Assembly: GCF_964204645.1 (NCBI RefSeq) | Contig: NC_134025.1 | Location: 17,831,101-17,895,100, forward strand | Reading direction: 5' to 3' | Source: Tubulanus polymorphus | Taxonomy: Eukaryota > Animalia > Nemertea | Length of the DNA stretch: 64,000 bases | Shown here: positions 22,191 through 62,430 of the stretch, one piece after another | How the letters are laid out: every line of letters starts with the position of its first letter | Position numbering within the stretch: the stretch's first letter is position 1 | Made by a program: the position numbers and the translations under genes | Notes under the pieces: model-generated | Databases searched by the model: none | What the model saw: only the letters and a program-made list of their open reading frames with translations | What the model was told of the DNA's origin: nothing

Positions 22191-22199
22191 ATTTTTTTT

Positions 22200-23624: not shown

Positions 23625-24275
23625 TTATTTTAGTTAATTTTTGTTCTGATTTAATATTATCTGTTTCGATATCTGATTTTTTATCTTTTCTTTGTTCATA
23701 TTATCTAATTCTTGAAAAGTTATTATTTTACCAATAAATTCTTTGTATTTACCACTAGCAATTAGTTACTCAAGTTGATGTTTACAATATAAATAGTATT
23801 CAATATCAATAATATTATTTTGAATACAAATAGTTGTTACATTATCATTATTATTTTCAATTTTGGCTTCGGTTAATCCTAAATCATCTAATGTTTTTTC
23901 AATATCAATATTATTCTTACTCGATTTCTTAGACATTTATTATGAGAAAAAAGTAAAGAAAAATATAATATATTAATACTAGCTAGTTAAAATGCTTTAA
24001 ATTTTAAATACTAGCTAGTTAAGTTAAAGAATTTTTATTCAATTCTATTTAAGTTATAAAGTATTGTCTTTTTTGAAAAGGTATATTAGATTTTGAAAAA
24101 AATTAAAATAGAAATAATGTCTACTTGCAGTTATTGTTTTTTTAATATTTTGTATTTGAATTAGGATTTAATTTCTCACTACTTATGTCTATCTATGTGG
24201 AGCAGTTACTATAAATATCCAGATACTTCATTTCAGATTCTTGGTATTAAATTCCACAAACTATTCTTTAACCAC

Positions 24276-24850
24276 TTAATAAAGATTCAACGTATTGTTC
24301 ATTATTTTGATCATATTGTTCCATAATTCACTAAATTTCTTTGGTTTTGCTAATTGATCTAAATATAATTGTAAATCTAGTTTGTTTCCTTTCCTAGTAT
24401 TTTCTGCTTTTTCTAAAGGTCTTAAATTTTTCCAATTCCAAATTAACTTTTTATTGTATTCATCATTCATGTTAAATTTCGATATAGGTAAAACATGATC
24501 AATATGAAAATAATCTCCATAATTATCTATATTCATTTCATCATTAAACTGATATATAATCCATGATTTTAAGAATTCATCTGAACAACCCAATAAATTT
24601 GTAAGTGTTTCTGAGTGATTATCTTTACTGAATAAACTTGATAATCTATTGCCTAGACATTTGCTCACTTTAAAATTAAAATCTGTTCGACACCTTTCTT
24701 TTTGGTAATTGTTATTATACACTTTAATATGCTCTCTATTATCATTCATCCATTCTCTCATATATACTTTTTTACAACTTTTACAATAACTTTGCTTACC
24801 ATCTTTAGAATATTTATCTTTATAATATTCCGAGAATTGTTTACTTTACC
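24276..24850 (-). pseudogene. HNH endonuclease, 5'-truncated
   Basis: LLGCSDEFLK...NYG.YFHIDHVLP...NLRPL...N..K.NK; cut off at the junction with the PolB fragment. Confidence 0.85.
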
Positions 24851-29809: not shown

Positions 29810-30461
29810 ATGGAACCAGAACAATCACAAACTATCAATATTACAAATAATACTGGCGTTATAAATATATACTATAAGAAGTGTTCTACATGTGAATTAG
29901 ATAAATTAGCTATAACAGAATTTAGTAAGTGTAAGATTAGCAAAGATGATTTTCAATATTGCTGCAAAACTTGTATTAAACTATATACTAAGCAATATCG
30001 AGCAGATAATAGAGAACATTTTAACGATTATATGACAGAATATATGAGAAGAAGATATAAAAAAGATCTTAATTTAAAATGAAACAACGTTTAAGGTCTA
30101 GATTAACACAATTATTCAACAAAGAAACGCATTCAACAACACTATCTTATTTGTTGGGTTGTACAGATGAATTTCTCAAATCATGGATAATATATCAATT
30201 CGACGATAAAATGAATATAGATAATTATGGTGAATACTTTCATATTCATCATGTGTTGCCGATTTCTAAATTTAACATGAATGATGAATACAATCAGAAG
30301 TTAATATGGAATTGAAGAAATTTAAGGCCTCTTGAAAAGAAGGAAAATATAATTAAATCTAATAAACTAGACTTTCAGTTATATTTAGATCAACTGGATA
30401 AAGCAAAGACATTTGTTGAATTATGGAATTCAACACAGAATGAAAAATACGTTGAATCTTA
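29810..30461 (+). pseudogene. Zn-finger/HNH endonuclease
   Basis: Homologue of 52664-53314 with a frameshift near 30075 and a stop at 30313. Confidence 0.85.
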
Positions 30462-30549
30462 AGCGTTTATAATAAGAACTCTACTCGAGTCGCTCGTGTA
30501 TGTGTGTATATAGCTCTCCATTATAACTGCCTATATGCAATTATACTAG

Positions 30550-31373
30550 CATCTGTGCCACATTTTATATTCAGTTGAATGGGGAGTACCTCATTTGAAT
30601 ATTGATCGAACGTGCTCTTTCAGTTGAAAAGGATTAATCAATTTCATCACAAAAGAACATCTGTTGCACAGACAGACCAGGCCTGGGTATATTGAGCGCA
30701 GACGCATTACAACAGCCGAACTGAAAAGGTGGAATATAGAACGCATAGGATTTCTAGAAACACAATTAGGAGTTTATAGTTATAAATGTAAGTACTGTTT
30801 TTGTTGTTATTAAGACGCTGGGAAACGTTACGCATGTTATAGTGTATTAATCTATAATTGAAAACTACAACTTCAAGTTAGTTTTATTCTACGCTAGATA
30901 TTTATCTTTTAGATAACAAAATGCTACGCGTAACAAGAAGACCATTGCTATTTGAACCAAGAAAGTGAAGATAGGAGGATGTGGAATCAGAAATTATGGA
31001 TATTTCAACTCATGAGACCGTAGCAGTTTAGCCATACTGTATAGACTTTCAATGCATTACGTTTGCCGGAATTTCAATTGCGTCATTCAGCTGTTGTTAA
31101 TGTTGCAGTGACAGATGTTGTATTATACTTTATTGATTCCCGCATTCCCGCATACCTTACCGCTCATGAAATGAGCGGCTTGGAATGTGGAAATCGATAC
31201 TGAATGTAGAATAAAATATATGTGATTATGAAATAGTAATTCCACCAGTCGTTTCTTTGAATTGATTTTCAGTTTGACGATTTATTATCAAGGATCCGAA
31301 ATGACTTATCTTGACAGTTTTAGTTACTGCTCCTAATAGATAGACAAAAGTAGTGAGATAATCTAAATCCTAA
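30550..31373 (+). ncRNA. Candidate large structured ncRNA (copy B)
   Basis: No ORF, GC-richer than flanking viral genes, conserved with 53385-54235, and stems preserved by compensatory changes. Confidence 0.6.
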
Positions 31374-31600
31374 TTTAAATAAAATATATTAGAAATTACA
31401 TACCTTCAACTAGCCATTATTTCTATAATATTTTTTTTTCTCAAAAATCTATTATTTCTTTTCAAAAAGAGAATACTTTATATTTTGATAAGATTCGAAT
31501 AGAAATTCTTTAACTTAACTAAGCTAGTATTTAAGATTCTTTAACTTAACTAGCTAGTATTAAAATATTATATTTTTCTTGCTTTTTCTCTCTAATATAA

Positions 31601-32523: not shown

Positions 32524-32529
32524 AATAAG

Positions 32530-35462: not shown

Positions 35463-35524
35463 TTATTTTACATATTTTCTTATTCGAAATCTATTTCATG
35501 GTGCCCTTTTTCATTCTTACCTTT

Positions 35525-35833: not shown

Positions 35834-35882
35834 TTATAATACATACTTTTATTAAAATTTGATTAACACGCTAGAATTCTTT

Positions 35883-43900: not shown

Positions 43901-44214
43901 TAGAGTAGTACATAATTTTATCCACACGTGTCACCACCAACTGGCGTTACCATAAAATCCGGAAAATGGCGAGCACGGCAATTACACCGAGAAGAGGTAC
44001 GCTGGCGAGAAAATTCAAAAAAGTGAGTGAATCGAGTTCAATACCGAAAGATCAAATTGCGGTCAGCATACCTGCTGGTCAGAAGGTCAGTTTGATGGAT
44101 ATAGAAGCCCAGGTTAGGAAGCAGAACGGTCAGATTAGTACCAAAAACATAATCATTAGTTCACCCGGAGTCACCAAGAACAATAACAATATGGCGGTCA
44201 CGAAAAACGACGCA

Positions 44215-44545
44215 TATTTTACGGTTTGAAGGAAACGACAGACGAGAACCCTGAAATAGTAATCAAAAATTTCATCCAGGTTGAGCTGGACCTTCCATCT
44301 GCAGAGATGGAATTCGCAAGAGCCCATCGCATGGGTAGCGTAAAGAAAGACAAAGTCCGCCCGATCGTAGTGAAGTTTGAAAAATACAAAGACCGAGAAA
44401 CTGTTAGATCTTCAGCGAATAAACTCAAAGGAAAAAAACTTCAGTATTTCGGAACAACTCCCGAAGGAGTGGTAGGATAAGACGAGATCACTGATTCCGA
44501 AGAATCGGAATGCGAAAGCTAATGGAAACAAGGTATATTTCTAAA
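44215..44545 (+). pseudogene. LINE ORF1 (L1-type RRM) fragment
   Basis: FYGLKE...ARAHRMG...RPIVVKFEKYKDRE.V...KLKG, typical of the non-LTR ORF1 RRM. Confidence 0.75.
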
Positions 44546-45384
44546 AGGAAATATACTGAGACAGGTGGTTTTGCAAAGTCATTAAAAATCATGATCAAAT
44601 GCTTTTAAGGATACAATTCTTCTGACTTTGGAGGGAGAAGTCATAAAGAATGAATAAATTTATGAAGATTAAGAAATCGGTAATAAACGAACAGTTTAAA
44701 AGCGGAAGCACCCGTCGCGATAAAATAAAGATTTGAATATTACAAAATTATTATCTAAAACGGAATGAAAAGAAACGAATGCTACCGTTGATAGTATTCA
44801 CGTACAAATTGTAGAATGAGAATAGAAAATTTAATTGAAGACAAGTCACGAGAAGAGCAAAGAGATTTAGACAACCAATCCGGCGGCTTGAAATAAAGAA
44901 ACTCCTTAAAATGAATAAACTCGAATGCAAGATCTTTGTTTAATTACAAGGGTAGACCTAAGGTTCATCTAAATCTATATTTTTGAATTTAGAAATCAGG
45001 GGATCTAAAAATAGTATTCATCATTAGCGGGACGTCGATTCAGCAATTAATTTTTCAGGGAAGAGCCGCTCAGCCATTTCCGAAAGGGAATTGCGCATCA
45101 TCCGTGAGTATCGCAAAAATTATCTCATTGCTAATTAAAGTTGAAAAATAAGATGCATGTACGTTGTTTTCTGAATACTAAAAGATTCTTAATTTTATTT
45201 GTGTTCTGTCTACTTAATTGCGGAAATCCGATGTATTTGCAGTACTGGGAACAATAAAGTATTGAATTAGTAATAATTAAGTATATTTAAGTTTTAATAA
45301 AGTATATTTGAACTTGAATTGAGCGCACTAGGTGGTAGTATTGGAAGACACCAGGCGGTTTGATCATCTAAATATGCTTCAGCG

Positions 45385-45620
45385 CCGTGGGGCTGTCGCA
45401 AAAAGGCTGTATTTGTACGCGATAAACTCATTATTGACGGGAAAGAGCATAAACTGATAACGCCCATGGACACGAAGTAGGATATCGATGAGACCAACTT
45501 TAAGATAGGTGCTATCAATGTTTGCAGACTATTATCTAAATTAACGAAACCGGACTTTGTGGAATATACGAAAAATTTTGACTTTCTTTGCGTTTCTGAA
45601 ACAAAAACTGATGACGTCGA
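45385..45620 (+). pseudogene. LINE ORF1 end and ORF2 AP-endonuclease start, interrupted by Polinton C
   Basis: KAVFVRDKLIIDGK, then FKIGAINVCRL.SKL...FDFLCVSETK, cut at 45621. Confidence 0.7.
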
Positions 45621-45742
45621 AGTAATAGGGTATTAGTTGTTCTATACCAAAGGTCGAAGGGTCGAGAAATAAATTCTCGCACACTCGAATTTATTTTTCG
45701 ACCTCTCAACCTTTGTTATAGAACAACTAATACCCTATAACT
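45621..45742. repeat. Left terminal palindrome (~120 bp)
   Basis: agtaatagggtattagttgttctataccaaaggtcga...tcaacctttgttatagaacaactaataccctataact. Confidence 0.88.
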
Positions 45743-45759
45743 TCTACATAATCACGAGT

Positions 45760-46067
45760 CTCATAAATTTACAAGCCTCAACACGTTGAGTATTGTTGAT
45801 TCTAGATGGATGGTTCTAGAAAACTACTCTAGCCAATCACAGTTGAGTATTACTCTAGCCAATCACAGTTGAGTATTCCCTATTATTCTAGCCAATCACA
45901 AGCCTCAACACGTTGAGTATTCCCTATTACACTAGCCAATCACAAGCCTCATAATTTACAAGCCTCAACACGCAGCTGGGTTTTCCCCACTGTTGAGTTG
46001 TATCAATAGGAGGGATGCACACGTGGTGGGACTCATACGTGGCGGCGGGACGCGTTGAGAGGTAAGT
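45760..46067 (+). promoter_or_regulatory. Putative Pol II promoter: four CCAAT boxes, E-box, E2F-like site, then a splice donor
   Basis: TAGCCAATCACA four times (45830-45944), CACGTG near 46020, GGCGGGA near 46044, AG|GTAAGT at 46060-46067. Confidence 0.5.
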
Positions 46068-46104
46068 GTTATGTTCAGTTTTAATAAATAAATTTGATAT
46101 TTAA

Positions 46105-46458
46105 ATGGAGAGTAAACAAGTACAAAGTGAGAACAACAAATCATTTCTAGATAGAATTAAAGATATCACAAATGCTAAATCTGTAGATTATAAGTTTAAG
46201 AAGTTGAATGAACTAACAATTCATAAGAAATATTTAATTACTAATATTGATACAGTTACTAATAGATATGGAGATAAATTAGTTATTCACTTAGAATATG
46301 AAGGATTGAAAGGAAATACATATAAATTCAGAACATATTTACCAGATAGATTTCATAGATTATCAAGTGAAGATTAAGAAGAATTATGTTCTGGAGATTT
46401 CTATTTCATATATAAGGGTAAAAATGAAAAAGGACACCATGAAATAGATTTCGAATAA
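46105..46458 (+). pseudogene. Small conserved viral protein
   Basis: Homologue of 35525-35833; frameshift near 46375. Confidence 0.75.
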
Positions 46459-46472
46459 AATATGTAAAATAA

Positions 46473-46826
46473 ATGGTAGAATTAAAAGAATATAGAATAT
46501 TTGTTGATTCAAGAAGACTTACAAATTATAAATCACATTATTTACTAGTTCAATTAGATAGAGCATTTAAGAATTGTGTAGATTTAAAATTAGTAAATGT
46601 AAGTTTATGTAATTCTTTTTATAATATAACGGATAAAACTATTGAAGATAATACTTTTTAAATTCATATTAGAAATATAAACAAACGGTTTCATCTAATT
46701 TTATATTTTATCTATTCTATTTTTTTTAATATAATTTTGAAACACTAGCTCAAGAAATTAATCGAAGAGCACGGTTGAAAATTAGAAGAGATGATAAATT
46801 TTTAATTAGATTTATAAAAAAGTGAT
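46473..46826 (+). pseudogene. Probable minor capsid (penton) protein fragment
   Basis: IFVDSR...LDR...LKLVNVSLCNSFYNI resembles Polinton/virophage minor capsid N-termini. Confidence 0.55.
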
Positions 46827-47285
46827 AGCACAAATGGATGATAAAGTTGATAATATTGATATTATTCCTGATGATATAAATAAAACTTAATTAAAAACAT
46901 ATTTAGAAAAACAAATAATAGAATTTGAAAGTGACTTAAAGATAAAAAAAGAAAAAATATTTAAAAAGTAAAATTATATATTATTTTATTATCAGTGGTT
47001 CACTTACAATAAGTTCTGTAATAACATTTCTAGCAATATTCAGTCCATTAACACCTTTAGCTATATCAATTGGCGTGTTAGGATTAAGTTCAAGTGTTTT
47101 AACTGGTATAAGTTCAAAAATAAATATAAAAAGTAATAAAGAAAAAATTAAAACTAATATAAAAGAAATTAATAAATTGAAAAATACACTAGATTATATA
47201 ATAAGTTTAAATGGCGATATAACAGTTGAAGAACAAGATAAATTATTAAAAGAATTAGTTAATTATTAATTTTTTTGTTATATAA

Positions 47286-48580
47286 ATGGGGTTTCCAAAA
47301 GCTTTCCAATATAATAAATCAATTAAATATGAAATTCCTGCAATAGATTTTAATAAAAATATTACATATAAAAATTTAGTTTTAAATTCATTAACTTATT
47401 TAGAAATTTATGTTACTGAATCACAGTTTTTTATTTCTAAAATGGAAAATATATTTAATACATATGAAGTTACTTTCACTCGAGATGAATATCATATATA
47501 TAAAGTAAAATCTAATATGAAATATCGGCAGAATCAATTAAATTTTGCTGTTTATTGTGCAACAACTGGTTGTGGTATAAGTTGGAATGATCATTTAAAT
47601 AACTTAGATAAAAATTTGAATTATTCTGATTCAAAATTAATTCACACAATATTTAGATTTCACACATATTTTCAAATCAGAATAATATTAAATGAATTAG
47701 AATGCCATTTGCCTGGATCTAAATATTTTAAAGAATTGGATAATAATATTAATCTATCTAAGTTTTATAAAATATGTAATGAATTTAATATAAATATTCA
47801 TGCCTTTTTAAGAGCGCATGGTACATTGCAAGGTATTGGTGAACAGTATGAAATAAAAATAATTGATTATATGCATAGAATTGGAGCTTATCATAATTAT
47901 AAAATTGATAATAATAATGGTTGGATTAATTTTATTTAAGAAAATAGTGAAGGTTTTACTAAAGCTGGAATACAGAGAATAAATCAATCTATAAGAATAT
48001 ATTTAATTTGTATTCTAGGTGCACAGGTTGAAACAAGATCACCAATAATTGGAAATGATAATACTTCATTTGATACACAAAAACAATTCAAAGTATTATT
48101 TGAAGATTCCATTCATAATGATAAAAATAGATCGATTCCAGAAAATATAGTTAGGTACCAAAATTATTTAGATAAATCACATATTAGATTAAATTATTGT
48201 ATAGGCCCTAATTTATTAATTATTTCTAATGATTTAGTTTCAAAGATGGGAAATATTATTGGTTATAATAATCTAATTAAGACTGCAACAATAAATAATT
48301 CATTTAGATTAAATGATATAAATAAAAAGATTATTACTGCTCCAAAACTAATGGAAGGTGAAAAAAATAAAAAACATATTCAATCAACTGAAACTAAAAC
48401 TAAGAATATCAAATTAAATAATGATTCTAAAATAAAAGATTACAATACATCGGAAAATATAAAAACTGATAATATTCAACATGAAATAATTAAAACTAAT
48501 AATGATAATAAATCACATGAAAATACTAAATTAGCTATAACTTGTATAGGAATTGTAAAGGAGGATTATTATATTTTAAA
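47286..48580 (+). pseudogene. Conserved Polinton hypothetical protein
   Basis: QNQLNFAVYCATTGCGIS, FRFHTYFQIR, GFTKAGIQRINQSIR and ILGAQ motifs; internal stop at 47937. Confidence 0.65.
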
Positions 48581-48603
48581 TTTTAATTTTCTTTATTATG
48601 TAA

Positions 48604-50353
48604 ATGGCAGAAGGTGGAGAAGATATTGGAATTGATACTTTTGATGCACCCGGCATAACTGAAGAACCACAACCTGAATATAATGAAACTAATATTGATT
48701 ATGATGATGGATCAGCATATAATACTAATTTAGGTGAAGATGATGATCCATCATATAATTCTAGTTTAGCTGATGAAGATGATGGTGTAATTGATTACGA
48801 AACGCATGAAGAATTTAAAGAATATATGACAGCTTCCGACAGGAAAGTTATTAAACCCATAACATTTAAGAAAGATTTAATGAATAAATTAGTAAAATAC
48901 AACTGATCCTTTGAAAGATCAATTATATGGAATGAAAAGTAGAGTAATGGATACAATTGTTAACGAATTATTACCAAAAGTTGTAATAGATGAAATTGAT
49001 ACAGAAGGTGTTGTAATGCAAATTTTAAAAGATGATCCACATTTCATGAATAATTTAGAATTTAAAAATGATTCATGGTATTATAATGTTGAATTAAATA
49101 ACAAAACTGCATCAATACAATTATCTAGAATGGGACAAGAAAATATTTTTGAACCTGGAATGCTAGCAAGATCTACAATTGAAAAAGGTTCATATTACGT
49201 TCAAAAGGTGGTTCAGAATTTTTCAGAATTATATGGAATGCAATCGATAGAATAAATGAAGAAGAACCAATTAAGAATATTGATATTAACAAATATTCAC
49301 CATTTAAAAATCCAAATCCAAATCCTACATATGTTGATCCAGAAATGTAGAGTATGGAGATCGATTAGATAAATTAAGATCTTCAATACCAGAAACATCG
49401 AGAAGAGATATTCAAGAAATTGATAATGATTCAAGTCAATTACAATTAGTATTAGAAAAACAAATTGATAGCATGTTAGATACAATGAATTCATTTGAAG
49501 AAAATATTATTAGTGTTTTAGATACACCTGGTACTGAAACTGGAACAAACGAATGCAATCTTTATTAAAAAAAGGATTACTTGCTTTAAATGAAGAACAA
49601 TTAAAAATATTTCCTGAACAGCACGTAGAGAAATTAAAGGTATGCAAGAATCAGCTGGTGAAATTGCTAATATTAAGATGAGATTTTCTAAAATAACCAT
49701 GTTAGAAAAAGAATTAACTAATGCAAATGAAGAATTAAACCGATTAGAATTAACTAAAGATCTTCAAGTAATTGATGAAGTTGAATATGAATGCAGAAAG
49801 TTAGCTTTAGAAAAAGAAATTGATGATTTAAAATATAACAAAGAATTACAGGAAAAAGAAAGAGATATATTATTTAGATCATATGATCTTAATCATTTTT
49901 AAAAATTAAAAGTTATTTTCAAAGATTTAATAATAAAATCAGATTCTGAAATATCATTAAAAGATAGAATAAAATTATTATTTAAGTTAGAAGGTATAAC
50001 AATTCTTTCAATTCTAACAGCTGTAACTATGGTATTGGTTTAGCAATATCAAATTCACTGAAATCTACACCTACTCCCAATAAACCGGATAAACCTCCGA
50101 GTAATAATTCAATACAAGATAAAGTCAAAGATGGATTAAAGAAATTAGCAAAATATCTATGGGAACTAAAAAATTAGAAAATACAAAAAAATCTGCTGCA
50201 GCTTTACCAGGAATTATAGCATCAATTGTTGGTTTTATATTGAAACCTGCAGGAAGTATTCTTAACTTCGCTGCTGAACATATAATCTTATTTTTAATTA
50301 AAGTTGTAAGTGCAATTATTTTTGGGTTAGTGAATATGATAAAAAATAAATAA
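48604..50353 (+). pseudogene. Acidic/coiled-coil protein with C-terminal hydrophobic helices
   Basis: Chain of fragments: acidic N-terminus, coiled coil, EGITILSILTAV and AAALPGIIASIVGFIL. Confidence 0.6.
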
Positions 50354-50372
50354 ATAATTTTTTGTTAAATAA

Positions 50373-51424
50373 ATGAGTGGGAGTTACATAAATCCTTCTA
50401 GGAATTCAAGAATATATAATGCTATCAAAGCAGAGAGGTCTCATCATATAATTACTCATAATCCTTCTAATATTAATCCTGATGAAACTTTATATGTTAG
50501 AATCCCTCGATTAACACAAAATACTTTTTATGTTCCAAGTAGTATTTATTTATCAGCTGATATAAAAGTAACTGGCCATGATAATAATTATGTTGTTGAA
50601 AATGTTGGAAGATACTTGATTAAAAAATTAACTATAAAGATTGGACCAGAAACAGTTATCTCATTAGATGATTATAATTTATTTATGCATTATAAAGATT
50701 TATGGTTAACAAAAGAAAATAGAAATAATATGATATTTCAAGGCATCCAATCTGAAAACCATAATAAATTAAGATCAGAAGCTAATATTGCAATAATAAC
50801 TAATGCTACAGATGATTTGATAAAAAAAGATTTATGGAAGCAAACATAAAATTCCATTAGATTTTGAATTGATAAATAATAATGCACCTTTCTATAAATA
50901 TGCAATTCAAGAAGATATTATATTTGAAATAACATTTGCTCCTGTTAATGAAATTGTCTTATCAAGTGTGGTTAAAGATATGGGTTATAAATTATCGAAT
51001 ATATGTTTAAAATATGATACAGTAACTGATGAAAATATTTCAAGTATAATTCAAACTCAATACAATCAAGGATTTTCATTATTATATGATTATATTGATA
51101 AATTTAAAACTGTAACTATAAATGCAAATGATGAAATAATTAATGAGAATATTAACTTCCCAAGAAGATCTATTAAAGGTATATTAATATTTTTTACCAT
51201 TGCAACATATACTAATGGCGCAATAAATGTTGATAATTATTATAATCCTGAAATAACAAAAGTAGAAATAACTATCGAAGGAATAGCAAATAAAATATTT
51301 TGTCAAGGAATGAGAATGATAGACAAAGAATAAAGGAATCAAAAATTTTAAAATGCACATTTATATTATATCTGACGCGCAATTAAATATTGTAAATTCA
51401 CAATTAGATAGTGTTATGTATTAA
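50373..51424 (+). pseudogene. Major capsid protein (double jelly-roll, inferred)
   Basis: IITHNPSNI...LYVRIPRL, Y.LSNI.L.YD and NINFPRRSIKGILIFF motifs resemble invertebrate Polinton MCPs; frameshift near 50830 and deletion near 51325. Confidence 0.75.
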
Positions 51425-51456
51425 AATTTTAACTTTAATAAAAAATCTTATATTAA

Positions 51457-52185
51457 ATGGAAGGAGGTAAAGTATATAAACATATTCCATACATCGATAC
51501 ACATGAAAATAATGATGGTTTATATTATGTAATACCTTGTAATATAGCTTTGATATTTGATCCTATTTTCAAAATTTATAAAACTAAACTAATAGAAATC
51601 GATAGTAATAAAAGTGAAGTTGTTGATAATTTAAGTAATGTAATTGATAATAATGTAATACCTACTACAGTAATACCTACTACAGTAATACCTACTACAT
51701 CTAATAATGTAATACCTTCTACATCTAATAATGCAATAATATTAAATGTTAGTGAAAATAGAAATTATTGTGATTATTGTAAAGGTGAATTTTCAAACGC
51801 TCCATCAAATTGGAATAAACATATGAATACAAGGGTACATATAAATAATGTTATAGAACGTGTTGGTTTAAGAGAATTTATAGAACACCCATTTAGATAT
51901 GTTACAAAGTTTGTTTCAAATCAAAAAGTAAATGGTAAAGAATTATATAAAGATTTATTATTAGCAACACCTAATAAAGATGAATTAGATTTAACCGATG
52001 CTAATAAAATATTAGAATCAAACACTGTAAATGAAATATTAGGAGCAAACACTAATAAAGATAATAATGAAAATACAGGAAAGCGCATTGATAATAAAGA
52101 TTCTATGAAACTTAAATCAGAAAATAAAGATATAGTTGAGACGCCTAATAAGTATATCAATAAATTATTGATGAAGATACGGTAG
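51457..52185 (+). CDS. Zinc-finger protein with VIPTT/VIPST repeats
   Basis: CDYC...WNKHMNTRVH finger; homologous to 20520; acidic tail frameshifted. Confidence 0.7.
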   Translation: MEGGKVYKHIPYIDTHENNDGLYYVIPCNIALIFDPIFKIYKTKLIEIDSNKSEVVDNLSNVIDNNVIPTTVIPTTVIPTTSNNVIPSTSNNAIILNVSENRNYCDYCKGEFSNAPSNWNKHMNTRVHINNVIERVGLREFIEHPFRYVTKFVSNQKVNGKELYKDLLLATPNKDELDLTDANKILESNTVNEILGANTNKDNNENTGKRIDNKDSMKLKSENKDIVETPNKYINKLLMKIR

Positions 52186-52663
52186 AGAATTTGAAAAAAT
52201 TGATGGGGTATGATAGTGAATTGGAGAGTGATGATGAAAGTGATTCAGAAAGTAATTATCTAACACTCAAAAAGTAATAAAGGTTGAAAATTGTATAAAA
52301 TAATAGTAAATAAAAAAGGGGGTTTTAAGTAATTGAGGTATTTAAGGTATCTAATACATATCTAATACAATCTAATACATAAAATATCTTATTTTATAAA
52401 TTGATATTCATATGGAAATTGAAACCTCAGTAATAATAAATAACCTTTATTATTTTCAAACTTATTCATATATTAGTTGAAAAAATAAAAATAAATTGGT
52501 TGAAAATTGTATAAATAATATTTATTTAAAAAAGGGGGTTTTAAGTATTTAAGGTATCTAATAGGGTATCAGGTATTAGGGTATCTAATACATAGGTATT
52601 CATGAATAACATATAAATGAATAACTTCTAAAATCAATTTAGTAAAAAAAATATGTATAATAA

Positions 52664-53314
52664 ATGGAACCAGAACAACCACTAACTATAAATATTACAA
52701 ATAACACTGGCGTTATAAACATATACTACAAGAAGCGTTCTAAATGTGAATTAGCTAAATCATTAACAGAATTTAGTAAGCGTAATATTAGCAAAGATGG
52801 TTTTCAATATTGCTGTAAAACTTGTTTTAAACTATATACCAAACAATATCGAGAAGATAATATAGAACATTATAATTATTATATGGCAGAATATATGAGA
52901 GTAAGATATCAAACAGATCTTAATTTTAGATTGAAACAATGCTTAAGGACTAGATTAACACAATTATTCAACAAAGAAACACATTCAGAGACACTATCTA
53001 ATTTATTGGGTTGTTCAGATGAATTCTTAAAATCATGGATAATATATCAATTCGATGATAAAATGAATATAGATAATTATGGTGAATACTTTCATATTGA
53101 TCACGTGTTGCCGATTTCTAAATTTGACATGAGTGATGATTATAATAAGAAGCTAATCTGGTGCTGGAAGAATTTAAGGCCTTTAGAAAAGAAGGAAAAC
53201 ATAATTAAATCTAATAAACTAGATTTACAGTTATATTTAGATCAACTGGATAAAGCAAAGACATTTGTTAAATTATGGAACTCAACACATACTGAAAAAT
53301 ACGTTGAATGTTAA
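52664..53314 (+). CDS. Zn-finger/HNH endonuclease, intact ORF
   Basis: CCKTC finger, then LLGCS...NYGEYFHIDHVLPIS...NLRPLEKKENIIKSNK (HNH). Confidence 0.88.
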   Translation: MEPEQPLTINITNNTGVINIYYKKRSKCELAKSLTEFSKRNISKDGFQYCCKTCFKLYTKQYREDNIEHYNYYMAEYMRVRYQTDLNFRLKQCLRTRLTQLFNKETHSETLSNLLGCSDEFLKSWIIYQFDDKMNIDNYGEYFHIDHVLPISKFDMSDDYNKKLIWCWKNLRPLEKKENIIKSNKLDLQLYLDQLDKAKTFVKLWNSTHTEKYVEC

Positions 53315-53384
53315 ACGCTTAGAAAACCGGTTACTCTCGATCTATGTCAAACCGCCTGTATGTAATTGTATTAGGTTGTTTACA

Positions 53385-54235
53385 AAAACATCTGTGCCGT
53401 ATTTCATATTCAGTTGAATAGGGCGCACCTCATTTGAATATTGATCGAATGTGCTATTTCAGTTGAAAAGGATTAATCATAAAAGAACAAAGGAACATCT
53501 GTTGCACCAGACAGTGTTTAGCTAGTGAATAACTGGCAGTTATAAACGCGCAGCACATAAGCATAGGAACGTATAGGATATTCTCTCTATAAACACAATT
53601 TTAGGAGTTTACAGTTATAAATGTAAGTACTGTTTTTGTTGTTATTAAGGCGTTGGAAAACGATAAACATGTAAAACTTATCCTGGTAAGATGAGCCACA
53701 AAATGGTCATGTTTAAGTGTTGTAATTAATATTTTACAACTACAACTTCAAGTTAGTTTTATTCTACACTAGATATTTATCTTTTAGATAACAAAATGAA
53801 GGCCATTGAATCAAGAAAGTGAAGATAGATGGATGTGGAATTAGAAATAATGGATATTTCAACTCATGAAACTGTAGCAGTTTAGCCATACTGTATAGGC
53901 TTCCAATGCATTACGTTTGCAGGAATTTCAATTACGTCATTAAGCTGTTGTTAATGTCACATAGTGACAGATGTTGTATTATACTTTATTGATTCCTGCA
54001 TTCCACGCATACCTTACCGCTCGGCTGCCGAGCGGCTTGGAATGTGGAAATCGATAATGATTGTAGAATAAAATATACGTGTGTTTATGAAATAGTATTT
54101 CCACCAGTCGTTTCTTTGAATTTATTTTCAGTTTTAGGATTTATTATCGAGAATCCGAAATGACTTATCTGGACAGTTATAATTACTGCTCCTAATAGAT
54201 AGACAATAGTAGTGAGATAATCTAAATCCTAATTT
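53385..54235 (+). ncRNA. Candidate large structured ncRNA (copy C)
   Basis: ORF-free; many hairpins, long-range helices, and covariation with 30550-31373. Confidence 0.62.
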
Positions 54236-54466
54236 AGATAAAAAGTATTAAAAATTACATATCTTCAACTAGCTAGTATTAGTTATTGTTTTTTTAATAC
54301 TTTCTTTTCAAAAGAGAATACTTTATATTTTGAATAAAAAATACTAAAAAACAATAACTAATACTAAAATTCTTTACCTTTAACTAAGCTAGTATTAATC
54401 TAAAGAGATACTAGTATCATTTGAAGAATACTTATTATATTTTTTTCGCTTTTTTCTCTAATATAA

Positions 54467-55069
54467 ATGTCAAAGAAATCTAATAAGAATAGTATTGATA
54501 TTGAAAAGACATTAGATGATTTGGGTATTAGTGATAATAAAGATACAGTTGTTTCTAATTCTATTCAAGTTAATAACAATATAGATTATGAATACTATTT
54601 AACATGTAAACACCATCTAGAATTATTAATTGCTGGCGGGAAATGTAATCAGTTTATCGGGAAAATAATTACTTTTCAAGAATTAGACTCTATGAAACCA
54701 GATAAAGTAATAAAATATTTTAAGATTTATGAAGAAGCTAGATTAGCTAGAATAAATGATTCTATTTCAGATGGTATTGTCAAATGTTATTCTAAGTTAT
54801 GTAACCAGTTAATACCAATTGATGATGAAAATAAATTAAATAGTGATTTGAAAAATGACTACTTAGTTATGACTGAATTACAAAAATGGGTTGGTTATGC
54901 TTCATTCCAATTAGGATCGGTTATGACATTAATTTCTACTGGTGTCATAACATTTTCGAACATCACGCCTATGGAATATAAATCAGGTAAGAAAGAAACA
55001 GATGTACTACAACCAAACGTCGAAACAGAAAATGAATCAGAACAAAAATTAACTAAAATAAATGAGTGA
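54467..55069 (+). CDS. Conserved Polinton protein with C-terminal hydrophobic segment
   Basis: Intact 200-aa ORF with homologues in copies A and B. Confidence 0.8.
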   Translation: MSKKSNKNSIDIEKTLDDLGISDNKDTVVSNSIQVNNNIDYEYYLTCKHHLELLIAGGKCNQFIGKIITFQELDSMKPDKVIKYFKIYEEARLARINDSISDGIVKCYSKLCNQLIPIDDENKLNSDLKNDYLVMTELQKWVGYASFQLGSVMTLISTGVITFSNITPMEYKSGKKETDVLQPNVETENESEQKLTKINE

Positions 55070-55544
55070 TGACGTTAAGAAAAAGGCTAGATCCGAGAAA
55101 CAAATTAAATGGGCAAGAGAATTAGGTAAAAGATCTTCAGAATTAAAAAAAGCTAAGAAAAATAAATTAACTGATATAGAGAAACAAATTAAATGGGCAA
55201 GAGAATTAGGTAAAAGATCTTCAGAATTAAAAAAAGCTAAGAAAAATAAATTAACTGATATAAATGAATCACAGAAATTATCTGATATTGATTCGAATGA
55301 TAATACATCTGATTCTTCTAATGCTGGAAGAAATTATAAATTATATATTACAATTGGGTTAATCACAGTTATTATATTATCCGGTGTAATATATAAATCA
55401 AAATTCAAATCTGATGATAAAGATGATTCCAATGATGATCGGAAACTTAGTTATCCGTGTACAGACAATAAACCTATTATACCAGAAAATAAGTCAAATC
55501 ATAAAGCTTTTGAAACTAAATCTAAATTATTATTAATGGATTAA
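55062..55544 (+). CDS. Small basic transmembrane protein with an internal 28-aa duplication
   Basis: EKQIKWARELGKRSSELKKAKKNKLTDI twice; one TM segment. Confidence 0.75.
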   Translation: MSDDVKKKARSEKQIKWARELGKRSSELKKAKKNKLTDIEKQIKWARELGKRSSELKKAKKNKLTDINESQKLSDIDSNDNTSDSSNAGRNYKLYITIGLITVIILSGVIYKSKFKSDDKDDSNDDRKLSYPCTDNKPIIPENKSNHKAFETKSKLLLMD

Positions 55545-55550
55545 AAGAAG

Positions 55551-56631
55551 ATGAAAAAAGAACAATATTTAAGAGATTTATATTATAACCCAGAAAGTGA
55601 AGTATCATATTCTAACGTTTCAGAATTATGGAATAAAATTAAATCTGAAAATAGTGATATAAAATATAGTGAATTAAAATCATGGTTACAAAACCAACCA
55701 ACATATCAAATCCACAAGAAAATGGATAAAACTTATTTAACAAGAAAAGTTATGGTTTCATATATCGTTCAACAATGGCAAGCAGATTTAATTGACATGA
55801 AGAACTTAGAAGAATACAACAAAGGATATTTCTAGATATTGAATGTTATAGACATATTCAGTAGATACGCATGGTCAATTCCAATCAAAAATAAAACTGG
55901 AATAGAAGTAACAAATGCTTTTAAATCTATATTTAAAGAAGCTATTCCAGATAAGATACAATTTGATGAAGGTAAGGAATTCTATAACAAACATTTCAAA
56001 AAACTATTATCTGATAACGATGTTTTTTTTAACACACTCAGATAAAAAAGCATCTATTATAGAAAGATTTAATAAAACATTGAAAACTAGAATGTGGAAA
56101 TATTTTACTGCTAATGAAACATATAAATATATCGATGTGTTAGATGATTTAGTGAAAGGTTATAATAATTCTAAACATAGTTCTATAAATATGAAACCTA
56201 TACAAGCTAGAAAAGAAGATAATTCGGAAATAGTTTGGAATAATTTATATGGGGCGTTTGTTACACACGATTTCGGTGAACCTAAATTTAAAATAGGACA
56301 ACACGTAAGAAAGTCTAAATATCGAAAAACATTTTATAAAGGTTATACCCTTAAATTTTACTGAAGAAATATTCAAGATTAAAAAGATAATATTAACTAA
56401 ACCTTTTGTTTATAAATTAGAAGATCTAAAAGATGAAGAAATATTAGGTTATTTCTATGAACAAGAATTATCACTTGTACCAAATCCAGATGAAATAGAA
56501 TACAAAATAGAAAAAGTATTGAAAACAAAAACTCTTAAAGGAAAAAGTATTCTTTGGTGAAATATAAAGGATACGATGATAAATTTAATGAATGGATTTT
56601 ATCTAGTAAAATTAAAAGAATAAATGAATAA
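55551..56631 (+). pseudogene. RVE integrase with chromodomain
   Basis: Same motifs as 32530; stop at 55833 and several frameshifts. Confidence 0.92.
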
Positions 56632-57235
56632 AGATTTATTTATATTTGAACCGCATAATATGTTAGTTACTGGAGTAACCAATTGTGGTAAAACACATTT
56701 CATATTAGTATTGTTAGAAACTATTTATAAGAATCATTTTGATAATATAATATTATTTCGTCCTACTTATGAAATGAATAAAACATATAATAGAGATATA
56801 GTTAAGATGAAAAAGTTTATTATATTAAATCCTAAAACAGTAAAAGAAAATTTAGATAATTGTATAAAAATAGCAATTGATGCTTATAAAGGATCAAATA
56901 CATTATTCATTGTAGATGATTGCGCAAATTTACATGATTCAAAATTGAGAGAAAGTGAGTTATGTTATTTAGCTTTCTCTGGAAGACATTTTGGGATAAC
57001 AACATGGGTTTTAAATCAAAAATATAATTCAATTGTTAAAGACTTTAGGGAGAATATAAGATTTCTAGTTTTATTCTACAATAAAGATAGAAAATCTATG
57101 CAACAATCATTGGAAGAAAATCAAATTATACCTACTGAATTATATGATGAATATATGAATAAATTAAAGAATAATAAAGGTTCAAAATTATTACTGAGAC
57201 TACAATTTCCATATGAATATAAATTTATAAAATAA
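56624..57235 (+). CDS. A32/FtsK-like packaging ATPase, intact ORF
   Basis: GVTNCGKT, FIVDD, GRHFGI, NQKY and FREN. Confidence 0.92.
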   Translation: MNKDLFIFEPHNMLVTGVTNCGKTHFILVLLETIYKNHFDNIILFRPTYEMNKTYNRDIVKMKKFIILNPKTVKENLDNCIKIAIDAYKGSNTLFIVDDCANLHDSKLRESELCYLAFSGRHFGITTWVLNQKYNSIVKDFRENIRFLVLFYNKDRKSMQQSLEENQIIPTELYDEYMNKLKNNKGSKLLLRLQFPYEYKFIK

Positions 57236-57327
57236 CTATTTATATATATATATCCTATAAGAGCTTACACTTTTATATTGAATAATCTGTCAATTTAAAT
57301 GTTATTCATTTATATGAATATTTTAAG

Positions 57328-57730
57328 AGTAATAGGGGTAATAGGCTTTCATATCAAAGGTTGAATGGTCGAGTTCATTAAAAACATATATTAAAAGTAA
57401 TTTAAAACTATAATATATTTTCATAACCGTGTGTATTTCAGTTGAATAAACGAATAATTATTATTATTTGAATATATTTGATTATATGAATTTGTGTATT
57501 GTAAATAAATCAATTGGTCGCGGAGCGGAGCGGTAGCGAAGTGGAGCGACCAATTGATTTAATATAATATGCTTTTTAAATTATTGATATCTTAGAATAA
57601 ATATTTAGTTATAATATAAAATGCACACGGTTATGAAAATATATTATAGTTTTAAATTACTTTTAATGTTTTGTTTTTAATGAACTCGACCGTTCGACCT
57701 TTGGTATGAAAGCCTATTACCCCTATTACT
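57328..57730. repeat. Right terminal palindrome (~400 bp)
   Basis: agtaataggggtaataggctttcat...caattggtcgc[GC apex]gcgaccaattg...atgaaagcctattacccctattact. Confidence 0.9.
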
Positions 57731-57731
57731 G

Positions 57732-59126
57732 ATGTCGCCGAAAACTTACAATAGAGCTCTTCAAGTGGCGCACCACCTTGCCCAGTTGAGCTCTGGTCCG
57801 AAAGCGATTCGGAGGAAGAAGGACCATCTGAAGATGTTCCTGCGGCCGGCGGCTTGCACCGAAGCAGTGACGGTGCAGCTGCACGCTGCCGCGGACGTCT
57901 GGATGGAGACAGTCTCGAAAGAGCTGACCATTCATTATGCCGGCACATTTGTAGCGCTAATGGGTGATCCTCTGCCGGACTGTCTGTCAGCACAGGATGT
58001 CGCCCTGACATGGGCCCGGAGGAATTTCGGCCCCCGTCTGAGCCCCGGAACAATCCGGCTTTTCAACATCGCGCTCGATTTGCGGTCGAAATTCCGCGGT
58101 CAGGCTCTGTCTGACAAACTCAGAAATGTCTTATCTAATCCACCCTCTTCCCCTTCTCATTTCAGGTCACACCACCAGGAGGCACCCACGGAGCCGAAGA
58201 TTCGTCCGCCGCCGAGACCGAGCCGGAAGATTCGACAGCCCGCGACGCCGAGGACGCCTGCACCAACCGCAGCTGCGCCCGCCGCGCCCACAGCGCCTCC
58301 TTCTTTTTCTAATTCCAGGTCACCGAGAAGCTACGCGGATGTCACCAGGACGCCACCAACCAGAATGGCGCCACCACCGAGAAGTCCGACGCCGCCGCCG
58401 CCGCCACCAAGAAGTCCGACGCCGCCGCCTCGAAACCCGACGCCGCCGCCGCAGAGAACGCCGACCGCACCAACCATCAGTCCGATGCCGTCTCTCTCTT
58501 CTTCTCTTTCCAGCTCTCCGTCTCATTACAGGTCACCAGGGGGCCTACTGCCAGCGCGAAGTCCGACGCCAACACCGAGACCGATGGCGCCCAAGGAAGT
58601 TCGCCGTCATCCGAATACGGGTCGGAAGAAACAGGATTGGAGTCTGCCACCAACCCGGTGACCCATTCTGGTGATTGGTGACTCAAATCTGAGTAACATC
58701 ACATCAAGCCGCCGCCCGGATGACGTCCAGATTGAGAGCTTCCCCGGCTGCAAGATAGCTCATCTCGCCGACCTGATCGATGATGTACCGGAGCGCCGAG
58801 ATCGCCCGGATACGGTGATCATCAGCGTCGGAATCAACAACCGCGACAACAACTTCGAAGCGACCACCAGGAAGACTACACAGCGCCTGATCAACGCCGC
58901 AGTCAAAAAGTATCAGCACTCGTTCGTCCACTTCGTTCAACTCAACACGACCCGCGAACACCAGCAGTTCGCCCGGAAGTTCAACGAACTCCTCGAGAAT
59001 AACGACGACGTCACCGCGATACCACCCATCGATGATCGACGCTTCAGAGTTGTTGGAGACGGGATCCACTGGAACCGTGGTACAGCTAACACCCTGCTGG
59101 ACCACTGGCTCAGTGGTTTAAACTAA
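57732..59126 (+). CDS. ORF1: proline-rich region plus SGNH/GDSL hydrolase, with an in-frame TGA at 58659
   Basis: ORFs 57732 and 58671 are in the same frame; SGNH blocks GDSN, FPG, GINN and DGIH. Confidence 0.75.
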
Positions 59127-59281
59127 GTATTAGTGAGACCAACGGGTCCACTATTGGTGAGTTAAATCAACCGGAATTAACCAATGCTTCTCTGATTTCT
59201 TCCATTTCCAGGTCCGACGAACACGAAGAACCGGCACCAAACCAAGCGCGACGCGATCCGGTCACCGCTCTCGGGAGCCCG

Positions 59282-61568
59282 GTGATCAACCTCACACGTT
59301 CACTCCGCCTAAGTCCGGCGCAACATCAGCTACTCCGAAAGGGCCTCACTTATTGCCCGACTCCAAAAATCGGTTCTGATGCCGCCGCGACCGAGCGCAC
59401 CAAGGGAGTGTGCCGATTCAACCGGCTAGTGAAACTCGACCATCACTTCCGAGACAAACCGGACCGCGAGGCTCCGCGCTTCCGTCTGCCCAGCAGTTGG
59501 GCTCCGGATGAAATAGAACCAGTAATCGCCGGGTTCTGCAACGACGCGCACGAATTGGCTCAACAAACCAGGGATACGCGTCGTGTAAATGATAGCCTCA
59601 CTAAACAGGAACGCGAAGCCCTCAAGCAGCTGCGTGACAACACTAATATTGTCATCAAAGCCGCCGATAAGGGTTCCGCCACGGTTATCATGGACCGCGA
59701 CGACTACGTCCACGAAGCCATGCGCCAACTAGCCGATCTCGAGTATTATCAGCCGCTGCAGCAACCGATCTTCGAACAGACCGGGGAAGAAATTCGCGAA
59801 ATCATCGAAAATATGGCTCGACGAAAAATCATCCCGCTAAAAACCGCCGAATATCTATTACCGCCCGATAATCCGAAACAGAGGCAGTTCTATCTGCTTC
59901 CCAAAATCCATAAAGAACGCGAGAAGTGGACGGTACCCGATCGCGTACCGCCGGGGAGACCGATCGTCTCCGACTGCGGCTCCGAAACCTACGAAATTTC
60001 GGAATGGATCGACTACTATTTGCAGCCGATCGCCCGCGGTCACCCGTCGTACGTCAAAGATACCAACCACTTTCTAGATATTTTTGCCGGTAAACAGTTT
60101 AGCGCCGATGCGTTACTCGTCACCATGGACATCGATTCGCTCTACACCAACATCCACCACGAAGAGGGTATCGCCAGGATCCGACAAGCTCTCCGAGATA
60201 ACCCAAACCCGGGACGCCCGGATGCAGAGCTGCTGAAACTACTCGAAATCAGCCTGAAGAAAAACGACTTTAACTTTAACGAAAACACATATTTACAGGT
60301 AAAAGGTACCGCAATGGGTAAGCGTTTTGCTCCTTCTTATGCCAATATCTTTGTAGCCGAATGGGAAAAAGAAGGTCTGTCCAGAAGCGAACTCAACCAT
60401 CGCTATACGCTCGGTTCATCGACGACATCTACATAGTTTGGGAACACGGCCGCGAAACGTTGATGCAATTCATCGACGTCTTACAAACAGTGAGCCGATC
60501 CATCGAACTCAAGTTCGAAATCAGCGACACCAGCGTCAACTTCCTGGACGTAACCACTTTCAAAGGCCCGCGATTCGAGACAAGTGGCACAGTAGACACC
60601 AAAGTCTACTTCAAACCAACCGATTCGCATCAATTACTACATCGATCTTCGTTTCACCCTAAACACACATTTTCTGGTATAGTTAAAAGTCAAATTCTCC
60701 GGTTCCGGCGCATTTGCAATAACGATTCGGACCTACACCCAGCGTCCGGAACCGTCCTTAAAGTACTCAGAGGTCGTGGCTACAAAGACCGCGAACTGCG
60801 ACACATCAAAAGCCAAGCTCTACGGCACCACGCCGAACGAGATCTACGAGAACAACAACGGGCCAATGAACCACCGAAAAAGCGTTTACCGCTTATCTTA
60901 CCTCACTCCGAAGCCAACCGAACCCTAGCCCGTAACATCCGAACCAGATTCACGGAACTGGCTACGGCCACCGGCCGGTCGGACGAGGTATCCACGGTCA
61001 CCGCCTACACCAAGCACAAGAGTCTCAAGGATCTCCTAACTTCGTCGCAGCTCAAACCCACGGAGCCACCCCCTCCCCGAGTCCCCTCTTCACCGTTTCG
61101 TAACAGAAATACTTCCGTTGTTTCCAATTCTTCTATTTCCAGGTCTACTCAAAGAACTCCGTCAACCCGACGTCGAGGCACCAAGAAATGCAGAACACCG
61201 AGATGTCGTACGTGTCCACTCGTCCGAGAAACAACCGTTTGCCGCAGCCACAACAAAATGCACGCGATCCGCAGCACAATTAATTGCGCGACCCGTGAAA
61301 TTGTATACTGCATCGAATGCACCAAGTGCAACATGCTGTACGTCGGCCAAACCGGAATGTCTCTACGAGAACGCGTCACTCATCACGTCTCACGCATCAG
61401 AACGAAGAATTCGACTCCAGTCTCGGACCACTTCAACCAAGTCGAACACACCCGCGAACACTTTCGGGTGTACGGTCAGGCTCCACGAGACCGATCCGCG
61501 AAGCAGCCGAACAAGACTGGATGCGACGACTCGACACGAACACGCCCCGAGGCATGAACGTCCCGTAG
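59282..61568 (+). pseudogene. Penelope-type reverse transcriptase plus GIY-YIG endonuclease
   Basis: IKAADKG, LPKIHK, GRPIVS, DIDSLYTNI, GTAMG, RFIDD, VYFKPT, CCC linker, VYCIEC...YVGQT...R...H. Frameshifts near 60385 and 61475. Confidence 0.93.
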
Positions 61569-61662
61569 ACCGCCTCACTACAACAATTAACTCTTACTAC
61601 TTTTTTACAGGGATTACCCGCTGCCCGTGCACTAGTGGGGTCTCCAAACCTTCGGTTTGGTC

Positions 61663-61750
61663 CCCTAACCTCTATCTCTAAACCTAACCCTCTGAACCCT
61701 CTTGACCCTAACCCTAACCCTCTGGACCCTCTAGACCCTAAACCCTACCC
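61663..61750 (+). repeat. Degenerate (CCCTAA)n telomere-like tract
   Basis: ccctaacc...aacctaaccct...ccctaaccctaaccct...ccctaaaccctacccc. Confidence 0.75.
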
Positions 61751-62430
61751 CTTCTGCGATTCAAAAAGCCGCCATTTTGTCTCTTTTCAATATCACTTCC
61801 GTTTTGTGGATGGTTTCAACATTACCTAAATTGCGGTTTACACACGCCGGCAATAGATTGAATAAATTGAATTGAATTGAGGCATCCGCGCGATTCAACG
61901 CACAATCTAAGGCAACTTTGCGGTCAACAAAAGTGTCACACTTACCCCTTCATGTGTAAAAAGGATTTCTCCAGTACTCAACGTCATTGATAATTGCTTA
62001 CCTCGCAAACAGCGAGCTTCTTCCGCAAGAAAATATAACGACAGCGTCACAGCGCGGCTATACACGAGGATCGGGCCTATTCGATTGGCATTCGACTGTA
62101 CAGTGCGAGCGTAATCTTCCGCGATTTAGCGTATCAATTGAATGTACGTTTTTTGCAAAATATGGGAAATAGAAACGATATGACGGCTATCAAATTCAAG
62201 AAATAACATAAGAGATTCTCCATGACTGGGAAATGAAAAACTAGATGCTACAAAATGGCACATTAGCAGATAAGACCAGTTTGTATGCGTCGTATAATCG
62301 AATATGCCCTTACAATAATGAGGACTCTACGATCGACTGTGGCAAGTCAGTATCACTAGATAGCGCTCAGAATAGTCAGACAGGATCACCTGAATGGATG
62401 TATGTTGATTAACGCGGTTTTTCGACTATC

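Follow-up and report, generated by a model that had tools for sequence, protein, structure and literature searches.

A probably structured, uncatalogued RNA element behind the HNH nuclease gene of a nemertean Polinton

We have analysed a stretch of 64,000 nucleotides (nt) from the nemertean Tubulanus polymorphus (contig NC_134025.1, positions 17,831,101 to 17,895,100 of the forward strand; hereafter the window), in which 3 decayed copies, A, B and C, of an AT-rich Polinton lie amid host DNA of 37–38% GC, and observed that in copies B and C a long non-coding segment directly follows the gene for an HNH nuclease. We regard this segment as a real and uncatalogued RNA element of an animal Polinton, and as one that is probably structured. 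The explanation that we favour, to which we assign a probability of roughly 45%, is that it is an optional, pseudoknotted RNA in the 3' untranslated region (UTR) of the HNH message, which acts without the HNH protein and hitchhikes with the nuclease gene. The observations that carry this argument concern the position of the element, its non-coding character, its excess of helices, its optional presence and the family to which the HNH protein belongs, and they were drawn from the window, from reads with the same species label and from public contigs.

In copy C the HNH frame stops at 53314 and the next ATG is at 54467. Between these points we place the 5' end of the element at the first hairpin that it has in common with copy B, and its 3' end at the terminal stem (Table 1). 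No open reading frame (ORF) of at least 62 codons was found in any frame, on either strand, of either RNA copy, in agreement with a first-pass annotation of the window, which had described an ORF-free stretch 3' of the HNH gene in B and C that is richer in GC than the genes. The GC fractions are 0.33 for the element in C and 0.35 for that in B, as compared with 0.27 for the flanking genes and 0.25 for Polinton copy C; the last value corresponds to about 75% AT, not to the 80% that the annotation had given. Every string that it had quoted lies where it had placed it. The 2 RNA copies are approximately 89% alike (87 differences in 806 aligned columns). A decayed protein gene, which had also been raised as a possibility, was not found, and this origin is ruled out by the absence of frames and by indels between B and C that are not multiples of three.

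The evidence for structure is an excess of helices. We collected all helices of at least 6 base pairs (bp) that can form in both copies and took the sum over the best eight without overlap, pseudoknots being allowed. On the plus strand the sum was -80.8 kcal/mol, as compared with -46 to -56 kcal/mol in 3 types of column shuffle, and was reached by 0 of 60 shuffles of each type; the minus-strand sum, -66.7 kcal/mol, was likewise reached by 0 of 60. The z score for the element was -5.9, against -2.3 to +0.5 for five other segments common to B and C, and when the count was confined to helices spanning at least 100 nt, it was -5.0, against -1.7 to +0.5 for five control segments. The strongest common helix, H1, showed pair probabilities of 0.97 and 0.96 with its enclosed domain folded alone. 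Since H2 and H5 cross H1, the predicted fold is pseudoknotted. Several hundred nt in length and non-coding, the element is thus predicted to form multiple helices, with pseudoknots among them. In the variable pair of H2, C has A-U and B has G-U, the form also carried by 275 of 282 reads, and the strands that the 3' module contributes to H4 and H5 are both altered in copy A, which is without their partners.

The first-pass annotation had missed three helices (H1, H4 and H5), as well as copy A and the place near 53355 where the element starts. Its other pairings were recovered to differing degrees. The hairpin at 54017-54035, the longer stem on which it sits (53987-54004/54039-54056, where C has U-G and B has C-G), the long-range helix that we call H2 and a hairpin at 53611-53633 can all be formed in both copies. 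The 2 compensated pairs reported at the hairpin tip are present, but they fall within a single 7-nt block that differs wholesale between the copies and may reflect one event. In the terminal stem, TAGGATTTA/TAAATCCTA, several outer pairs are broken in B and A, although at B 31278 the pairing letter occurs in 719 of 729 reads. The proposed GTGGAA/TTCCAC pseudoknot can be drawn in both copies, but its 6 bp never vary and there is a second possible partner at 54044.

Table 1. Features of the HNH/RNA region and their positions in the window (position 1 is the first nucleotide of the window; helices are given as 5' strand / 3' strand)
Feature	Position	Strand	Remarks
Free-standing zinc-finger + HNH (endonuclease VII-like) gene, copy C	52664..53314	+	216 amino acids (aa), open
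HNH gene, copy B	29810..30462	+	disrupted; the frame changes near 30073-30082 and stops early near 30316
HNH frame, copy A	24276..24845	-	61% identical to C
Predicted structured RNA element, copy C	53355..54235	+	~880 nt; ends placed by conservation
Second full RNA element, copy B	30530..31376	+	
Optional block	53355..54135	+	missing from copy A and from contigs L003/L004; read depth ~300-460 vs 700-930 on HNH
3' module	54136..54235	+	~100 nt; kept in A, B and C, missing from L003/L004; read depth ~840-1000
3' module alone, copy A	24158..24257	-	~20 nt past the HNH stop
AT-rich spacer with inverted repeats	54236..54466	+	perfect 21-nt arms 54274-54294 / 54346-54366; putative transcript end
H1, long-range helix	53494-53505 / 53964-53975	+	12 bp; strongest common to B and C, -14.8 kcal/mol
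H2, helix crossing H1	53756-53768 / 54062-54074	+	13 bp; predicted pseudoknot
H3, long stem with GC-rich tip hairpin 54017-54035	53987..54056	+	between the 3' strands of H1 and H2
H4	54106-54114 / 54157-54165	+	ties optional block to 3' module; invariant in B and C
H5	53601-53608 / 54188-54195	+	ties optional block to 3' module; invariant in B and C

Compensatory change was assessed in a non-circular manner, pairs being taken from one copy and checked on the other in eight settings. One of these gave a significant result: for pairs of C on the plus strand with a pair probability of at least 0.8, 9 of 14 changed pairs were kept, against a null of 4.3 (P 0.012). With one success in eight, the broader statement of the first-pass annotation, that differences between the copies preserve pairing, is not borne out overall, and we consider the label 'covarying' to be plausible for this element but short of established. 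Individual changes that fit the fold include the pair 53400/53420, which is U-A in one copy against C-G in the other, several swaps between G-U and Watson-Crick pairs, and a 5-bp helix (53569-53573/53933-53937) with U-A in C, as folded, and C-G in B, as read from the alignment. Among the 40 best-supported variants considered in each read-variant table (579 and 119 further variants follow), 32 of 38 B variants checked and 8 of 9 C variants equal the letter of the other copy, so that little independent covariation can be drawn from them. Four-fold degenerate sites, pooled from four genes, differ more often (36 of 168) than do the sites of the RNA (87 of 806; Fisher P 5e-4).

A number of results weigh against the explanation that we favour. 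The full copies that could be aligned were two, and the other seven pairing tests were non-significant (P 0.12–1.0). The divergence of the RNA, 7.7–10.8%, compares with 8% (3 of 36) at the four-fold sites of its own HNH gene; being no more conserved than these, the RNA may owe its conservation to recent shared ancestry. The HNH value itself differs from that of the next gene (14 of 38; P 0.005) but not significantly from that of the ATPase (P 0.07) or the integrase (P 0.35). Strong local folding was confined to 2 of 61 intervals of 150 nt (53911-54135). Over the whole length, the folding z scores were -3.5 (plus strand) and -2.2 (minus strand) for C, and -1.8 and -1.5, respectively, for B; the 2 copies, folded separately, differ in structure inside H1, and pairing of the variable 5' arm with the conserved arm was no better than that in 37 and 53 of 500 shuffles. 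Also, the integrase control segment beat 25 of 25 shuffles in one test (z -2.3).

One alternative is that there is no functional RNA at all, and that the segment is captured or locally expanded DNA, either host-derived or a control region acting at the DNA level, conserved by the recent kinship of B and C and with helices that are by-products of internal duplication. Short direct repeats do occur within the element (53596/54129, 53611/54173 and 53409/53458), and its GC fraction of 0.33–0.35 nears that of the host flanks (0.37–0.38); to these may be added its divergence, equal to that at HNH four-fold sites, the seven non-significant covariation tests of eight, and the finding, described below, that over half of the HNH copies are apparently without the full block. 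Yet the excess of long-range helices (z -5.0) was seen in none of the five control segments, and scrambled segments of the element alternate with near-invariant ones. Moreover, read depth over the block at no point exceeds the depth on the Polinton genes, which speaks against a high-copy host repeat at 80–85% identity. We consider it rather unlikely that the segment is DNA of this kind.

The first-pass annotation had proposed an undescribed large structured RNA. The helix excess, the non-coding character and the lack of an Rfam match support this proposal, which is drawn from two full copies. Rfam returned nothing at gathering level in the whole window. On the element it gave just weak hairpin matches, at E values up to 5 (C) or 10 (B), none of them to an intron or ribozyme, with microRNA (miRNA) and small nucleolar RNA (snoRNA) rows far under their gathering scores; the GOLLD, ROOL and OLE models did not match the element, and RF02033 did not match anywhere in the window. 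ARAGORN found nothing, and neither it nor Rfam detected a transfer RNA (tRNA), 5S or 7SL head or host non-coding RNA (ncRNA) such as would mark a short interspersed element, read depth being flat. A resemblance of sequence words to 7SK RNA was dropped, as it had no Rfam support. Searches for homologues were likewise negative. Of 3 exact element patterns run against viral contigs, two gave no match and one gave a single chance match inside a coding frame; a 16-base module pattern hit 10 viral and 54 prokaryotic stretches, none of which extended past the seed; blastn gave just a 29-nt chance match among phages and nothing among plasmids; blastn and nhmmer of the RNA against 69 HNH loci, among the matches listed, gave no homologue; and a covariance model of the 3' module, run over 63 sources, found A, B and C alone.

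We observed copies of the HNH gene both with and without the RNA. In copy A (minus strand), the HNH frame is followed after ~20 nt by the last 100 nt of the element alone, ~790 nt being absent. Public contigs L003 and L004, which are identical to each other around the point where the HNH match ends, represent a single close Polinton with the gene order PolB, HNH, the gene that begins at 54467 in copy C, the next gene and integrase; their HNH gene is intact (55–56% identity), and there is no RNA behind it. The L003 spacer between HNH and the next gene aligns throughout with C from ~54210 onward and is homologous over its entire length to the spacer at 54236-54466, whose AT-rich inverted repeats have counterparts in A and L003. 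A search with the L003 integrase detected no close Polinton in viral contigs.

In raw DNA reads (X6, ~12% of the run, both mate directions summed), depth on C was 700–930 over HNH, 300–460 over the block, ~840 over 54079-54219 and 290 just beyond, and on B it was 420–475 over the conserved 3' half of the block and 870–1000 over the module. Loose read ends concentrate at C 54080 (246 reads) and 54145 (288), and the 246–267 reads that join at C 54080 or B 31214 fit diverged full-length versions and shorter versions alike. From the depth steps and loose ends we conclude that the family has full, module-only and possibly diverged forms; at the stringency used, the full block is present in roughly 40–50% of HNH copies. 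Indels within the element also behave like modules. A 40-nt unit of 2 hairpins at a helix tip is absent from B and from 36 reads, and a rare variant, seen in three runs (a single contig in X1, another in X2, and 2 reads in X6), swaps the 199 nt (53767-53967) that separate H2(5') from H1(3') for 29 other letters while keeping the H1 and H2 strands. Its last three letters would make 2 G-U pairs of H1 Watson-Crick, if the unseen 5' strand matches B and C, and the variant is a possible compact natural form. Immediately 5' of HNH, many reads depart from the sequence of the window (314 and 547 loose ends), and these varied 5' contexts, together with the low four-fold divergence of HNH, fit a cassette that moves as a unit. 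The HNH protein does not need the RNA: L003/L004 and copy A show this, as do the relatives that lie in group I introns. The element is optional, not an obligate partner of HNH, and since close relatives keep the gene without it, the RNA is likely not an HNH guide.

The HNH protein of copy C keeps the family-invariant residues N138, H147 and N170 and matches the PHROG endonuclease VII profile (E 9e-17) over residues 22-201 of 216. Its structural model is confident (pLDDT 93.7), and the best viral folds for it include mimivirus L246 and an intron-encoded endonuclease of Bodo saltans virus; no solved structure was matched by sequence or by Foldseek at E 0.001, and the best VIA-align score, Z 4.7 to HNH-type nucleases, was uninformative. 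No Pfam family matched at E 0.01, and there was no match to a RuvC or RRXRR family. The HNH profile drew 40,075 representatives at E 1e-10. Relatives occur at at least 69 loci, 51 of them distinct among the matches listed (the metagenome scan covered 44 of 64 parts), and none was found in the prokaryote genomes searched. By motif scan, group I R and S motifs lie right behind the HNH gene in 36 of these 51 loci; Rfam confirmed a group I intron behind the gene of L001, and a custom group I profile added cores behind those of L024, L031 and L034, which the motif scan had missed. Two giant-virus contigs are dense in such introns: L039 (1-10339) has 20 group I intron profile matches in 10 kb, and L020 has eight in 5.5 kb. 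Related giant-virus enzymes are described as homing endonucleases that act in virus-virus competition (PMC5871332), and by analogy we infer homing activity for the copy C protein. It has been proposed that Polintons captured a PolB-fused HNH domain from group I introns (PMC10748475).

By analogy with HEARO and IscB, the first-pass annotation had suggested a ribonucleoprotein (RNP) of the RNA with HNH. As an obligate partnership this is not supported, in view of the intact HNH genes without RNA in L003/L004, of copy A, which keeps the last 100 nt alone, and of the 36 of 51 relatives, among the matches listed, that lie in group I introns; the analogy itself fails on domain content and on RNA position. 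A looser association, in which the RNA needs the protein but not the reverse and, where present, binds HNH as scaffold, inhibitor or guide, would agree with the position of both full copies behind an HNH gene on the same strand. Also, the 5' border of the block is not among the six largest groups of X6 loose ends, no other context was seen above 194 reads, and HNH and the RNA appear to share recent ancestry. The L003/L004 genes again speak against such binding, as do the endonuclease VII profile, which alone spans the protein with neither RuvC nor RRXRR, the 5' UTR location of HEARO and omega RNAs (PMC9755519), and the failure to find a variable guide segment at either end of the element. We hold even this looser association to be very unlikely.

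A ribozyme or its relic is suggested by the order of the helices. The element runs H1(5'), a large domain, H2(5'), an optional insert, H1(3'), H3, H2(3') and a 3' domain, which parallels the group I intron order P3, P4-P6, P7, P7.1/7.2, P3', P8, P7', P9; the HNH family is mostly group I intron-encoded, and the rare variant shortens exactly the segment from H2(5') to H1(3'). The RNA could thus be a remodelled group I core that arrived with the endonuclease, or else a new self-processing RNA. In keeping with the first-pass annotation, which had seen no group I or II consensus, Rfam and motif scans of the element found neither RF00028 or a P/Q/R/S core nor group II domain V/VI or D1-D4. The custom group I profile, built from 11 giant-virus introns, recovered 12 of the 18 control loci with E values of 3e-11 or lower, but its bit scores for A, B and C were all negative (best E 3). 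Judged by eye, H2 is an unbroken, AU-rich helix of 13 bp without a bulged G-binding pocket; no gene is interrupted, the element lying past the HNH stop, and the short forms do not have one precise junction in common. We think a ribozyme origin quite unlikely. A bolder proposal strikes us as doubtful: that animal Polintons own a class of giant multi-pseudoknot RNAs, being remodelled group I cores or new self-processing RNAs kept with the homing endonuclease after the intron stage, which work on or with the nuclease in competition between Polinton and helper virus.

In the explanation that we favour, the HNH message would likely run through the element, which would make up its 3' end. Palindromes terminate transcripts in mimiviruses (PMC4402537), and if transcripts end similarly in the AT-rich palindromes after 54236, the element would fall in the HNH 3' UTR. 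The RNA would fold compactly, with pseudoknots, and work independently of the HNH protein, either as an end that stabilises the message or as a stable decoy left behind by trimming. It would likely spread among copies by hitchhiking with the HNH gene, as free-standing homing endonucleases can carry neighbouring elements along (PMC11296320). No transcript was seen, no run among those listed with the stretch being recorded as RNA; X7 and X8, the latter possibly an RNA library, gave no match, and X5, a library of unrecorded kind, gave 8 short contigs that fall on B in its 3' half, none of which is evidence of expression either way.

Alternatively, a spliceosomal intron in the HNH 3' UTR might persist as stable intronic RNA. 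A donor-like GTAAGT at 53623 and a pyrimidine tract with CAG ending at 54132 are found in both B and C, and the acceptor-like site is close to the point at which copy A rejoins. However, a 6-mer donor is expected by chance ~0.3 times in 900 AT-rich bases (our estimate), no joint at these sites was seen among those listed (reads and contigs from DNA or unrecorded libraries), and H4 and H5 would span the 3' splice site. Of the explanations weighed here, we find this the least probable.

Two sequence motifs were noted in and near the element. Many Polinton ORFs (19460-38000 and 46000-57710) begin in the context WATAAATG, which is similar to the poxvirus late promoter TAAATG; 12 of 29 sites in these decayed copies open at least 50 codons, the window has 33 matches, against 22.8 expected, and the motif may point to transcription by a helper virus. 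A conserved copy lies in a hairpin loop inside the RNA element (53616-53638; B 30781-30803), with a stop codon right behind the ATG, an overlap with GTAAGT and then a run of T; a shorter RNA, of ~620 nt, could start internally at this point. GCTAGTA-type motifs occur ahead of the 54467 gene in A, B and C (54269-54410 in the window) and as a short tandem run in L003 (5010-5105); they are likely a promoter element of that gene, outside the RNA.

The host element has the genes and ends of a Polinton/Maverick: protein-primed PolB, retroviral-type integrase, packaging ATPase, capsid and terminal inverted repeats. Family hits in the window were rve, Pox_A32 and a weak Capsid_N; PolB-type frames, named by reading as they gave no family hit, are common to the window and a 1241-aa ORF of L003. 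The three Polinton copies, together with 8 kb of host-like sequence (38000-46000), all lie between inverted repeats of 81% identity (19461-19823 / 57353-57705), which makes the locus nested or composite. Within the PolB of copy A there is an intein-like frame (27432-27836; Pfam Intein_splicing E 0.0012, under the cutoff), and the L003 PolB is continuous, without this frame; HNH adjoins PolB in A and L003. The window also holds a copia-type long terminal repeat element, with 233-nt repeats 99% identical, at 7283-11512 and, at 57700-62000, a probably Penelope-like element that is GC-rich and gave a weak GIY-YIG hit.

Descriptions of large ornate RNAs come from bacteria and phages. Polintons occur widely among animal genomes and, to our knowledge, have been treated as protein-only elements; the open-access literature that we searched contained no report of a large ornate RNA in a Polinton. 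The structured RNAs of animal double-stranded DNA viruses include the adenovirus VA RNAs and the herpesvirus long ncRNAs, which serve as decoys or owe their stability to 3' folds. Polintons are distantly related to adenoviruses, but VA RNAs are short Pol III transcripts, whereas the present element is more than five times longer, has internal T runs and has no Rfam match. Polinton-like viruses and virophages do carry ncRNA, including group I introns in those of protists, yet the text of the survey lists catalogued classes alone (tRNA, ribosomal RNA, miRNA, group I introns, small nuclear RNA, snoRNA and histone stem-loop), with nothing like this element in size or type (PMC12220804). HEARO and IscB-omegaRNA systems similarly have a structured RNA adjoining an HNH-containing ORF; as described in PMC9755519, their protein combines RuvC and HNH with RRXRR and their RNA is required and sits in the 5' UTR, whereas here a zinc-finger + HNH protein of 216 aa is followed by a dispensable RNA. 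Without RuvC, and with its RNA 3' of the gene, the present system is not HEARO/IscB.

The element resembles the GOLLD and ROOL RNAs but is not a member of either. Like them (PMC12286853), it is large (GOLLD is often >800 nt), virus-borne and optional, with multiple predicted pseudoknots, a conserved 3' part, a more variable 5' part and no assigned function; unlike them, it belongs to an animal Polinton and lies behind HNH, and they occur in bacterial phages and prophages, often near tRNA islands, and have Rfam models of their own. The host genome seems to hold many natural copies with, without or with part of the RNA, so that its structure and role are open to direct comparison. With the HNH-bearing group I introns of giant viruses (L001, L002, and Bodo saltans virus, for which see PMC5871332), the element shares the protein family, an RNA directly 3' of the ORF and a similar order of 2 crossing helices, and it differs from them in being ~3 times longer, in having no P/Q/R/S sequence or interrupted gene and, as judged by eye, in the lack of a G-binding P7. 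If this helix order does reflect ancestry, it would show one way in which a self-splicing intron can become a viral RNA that does not splice.
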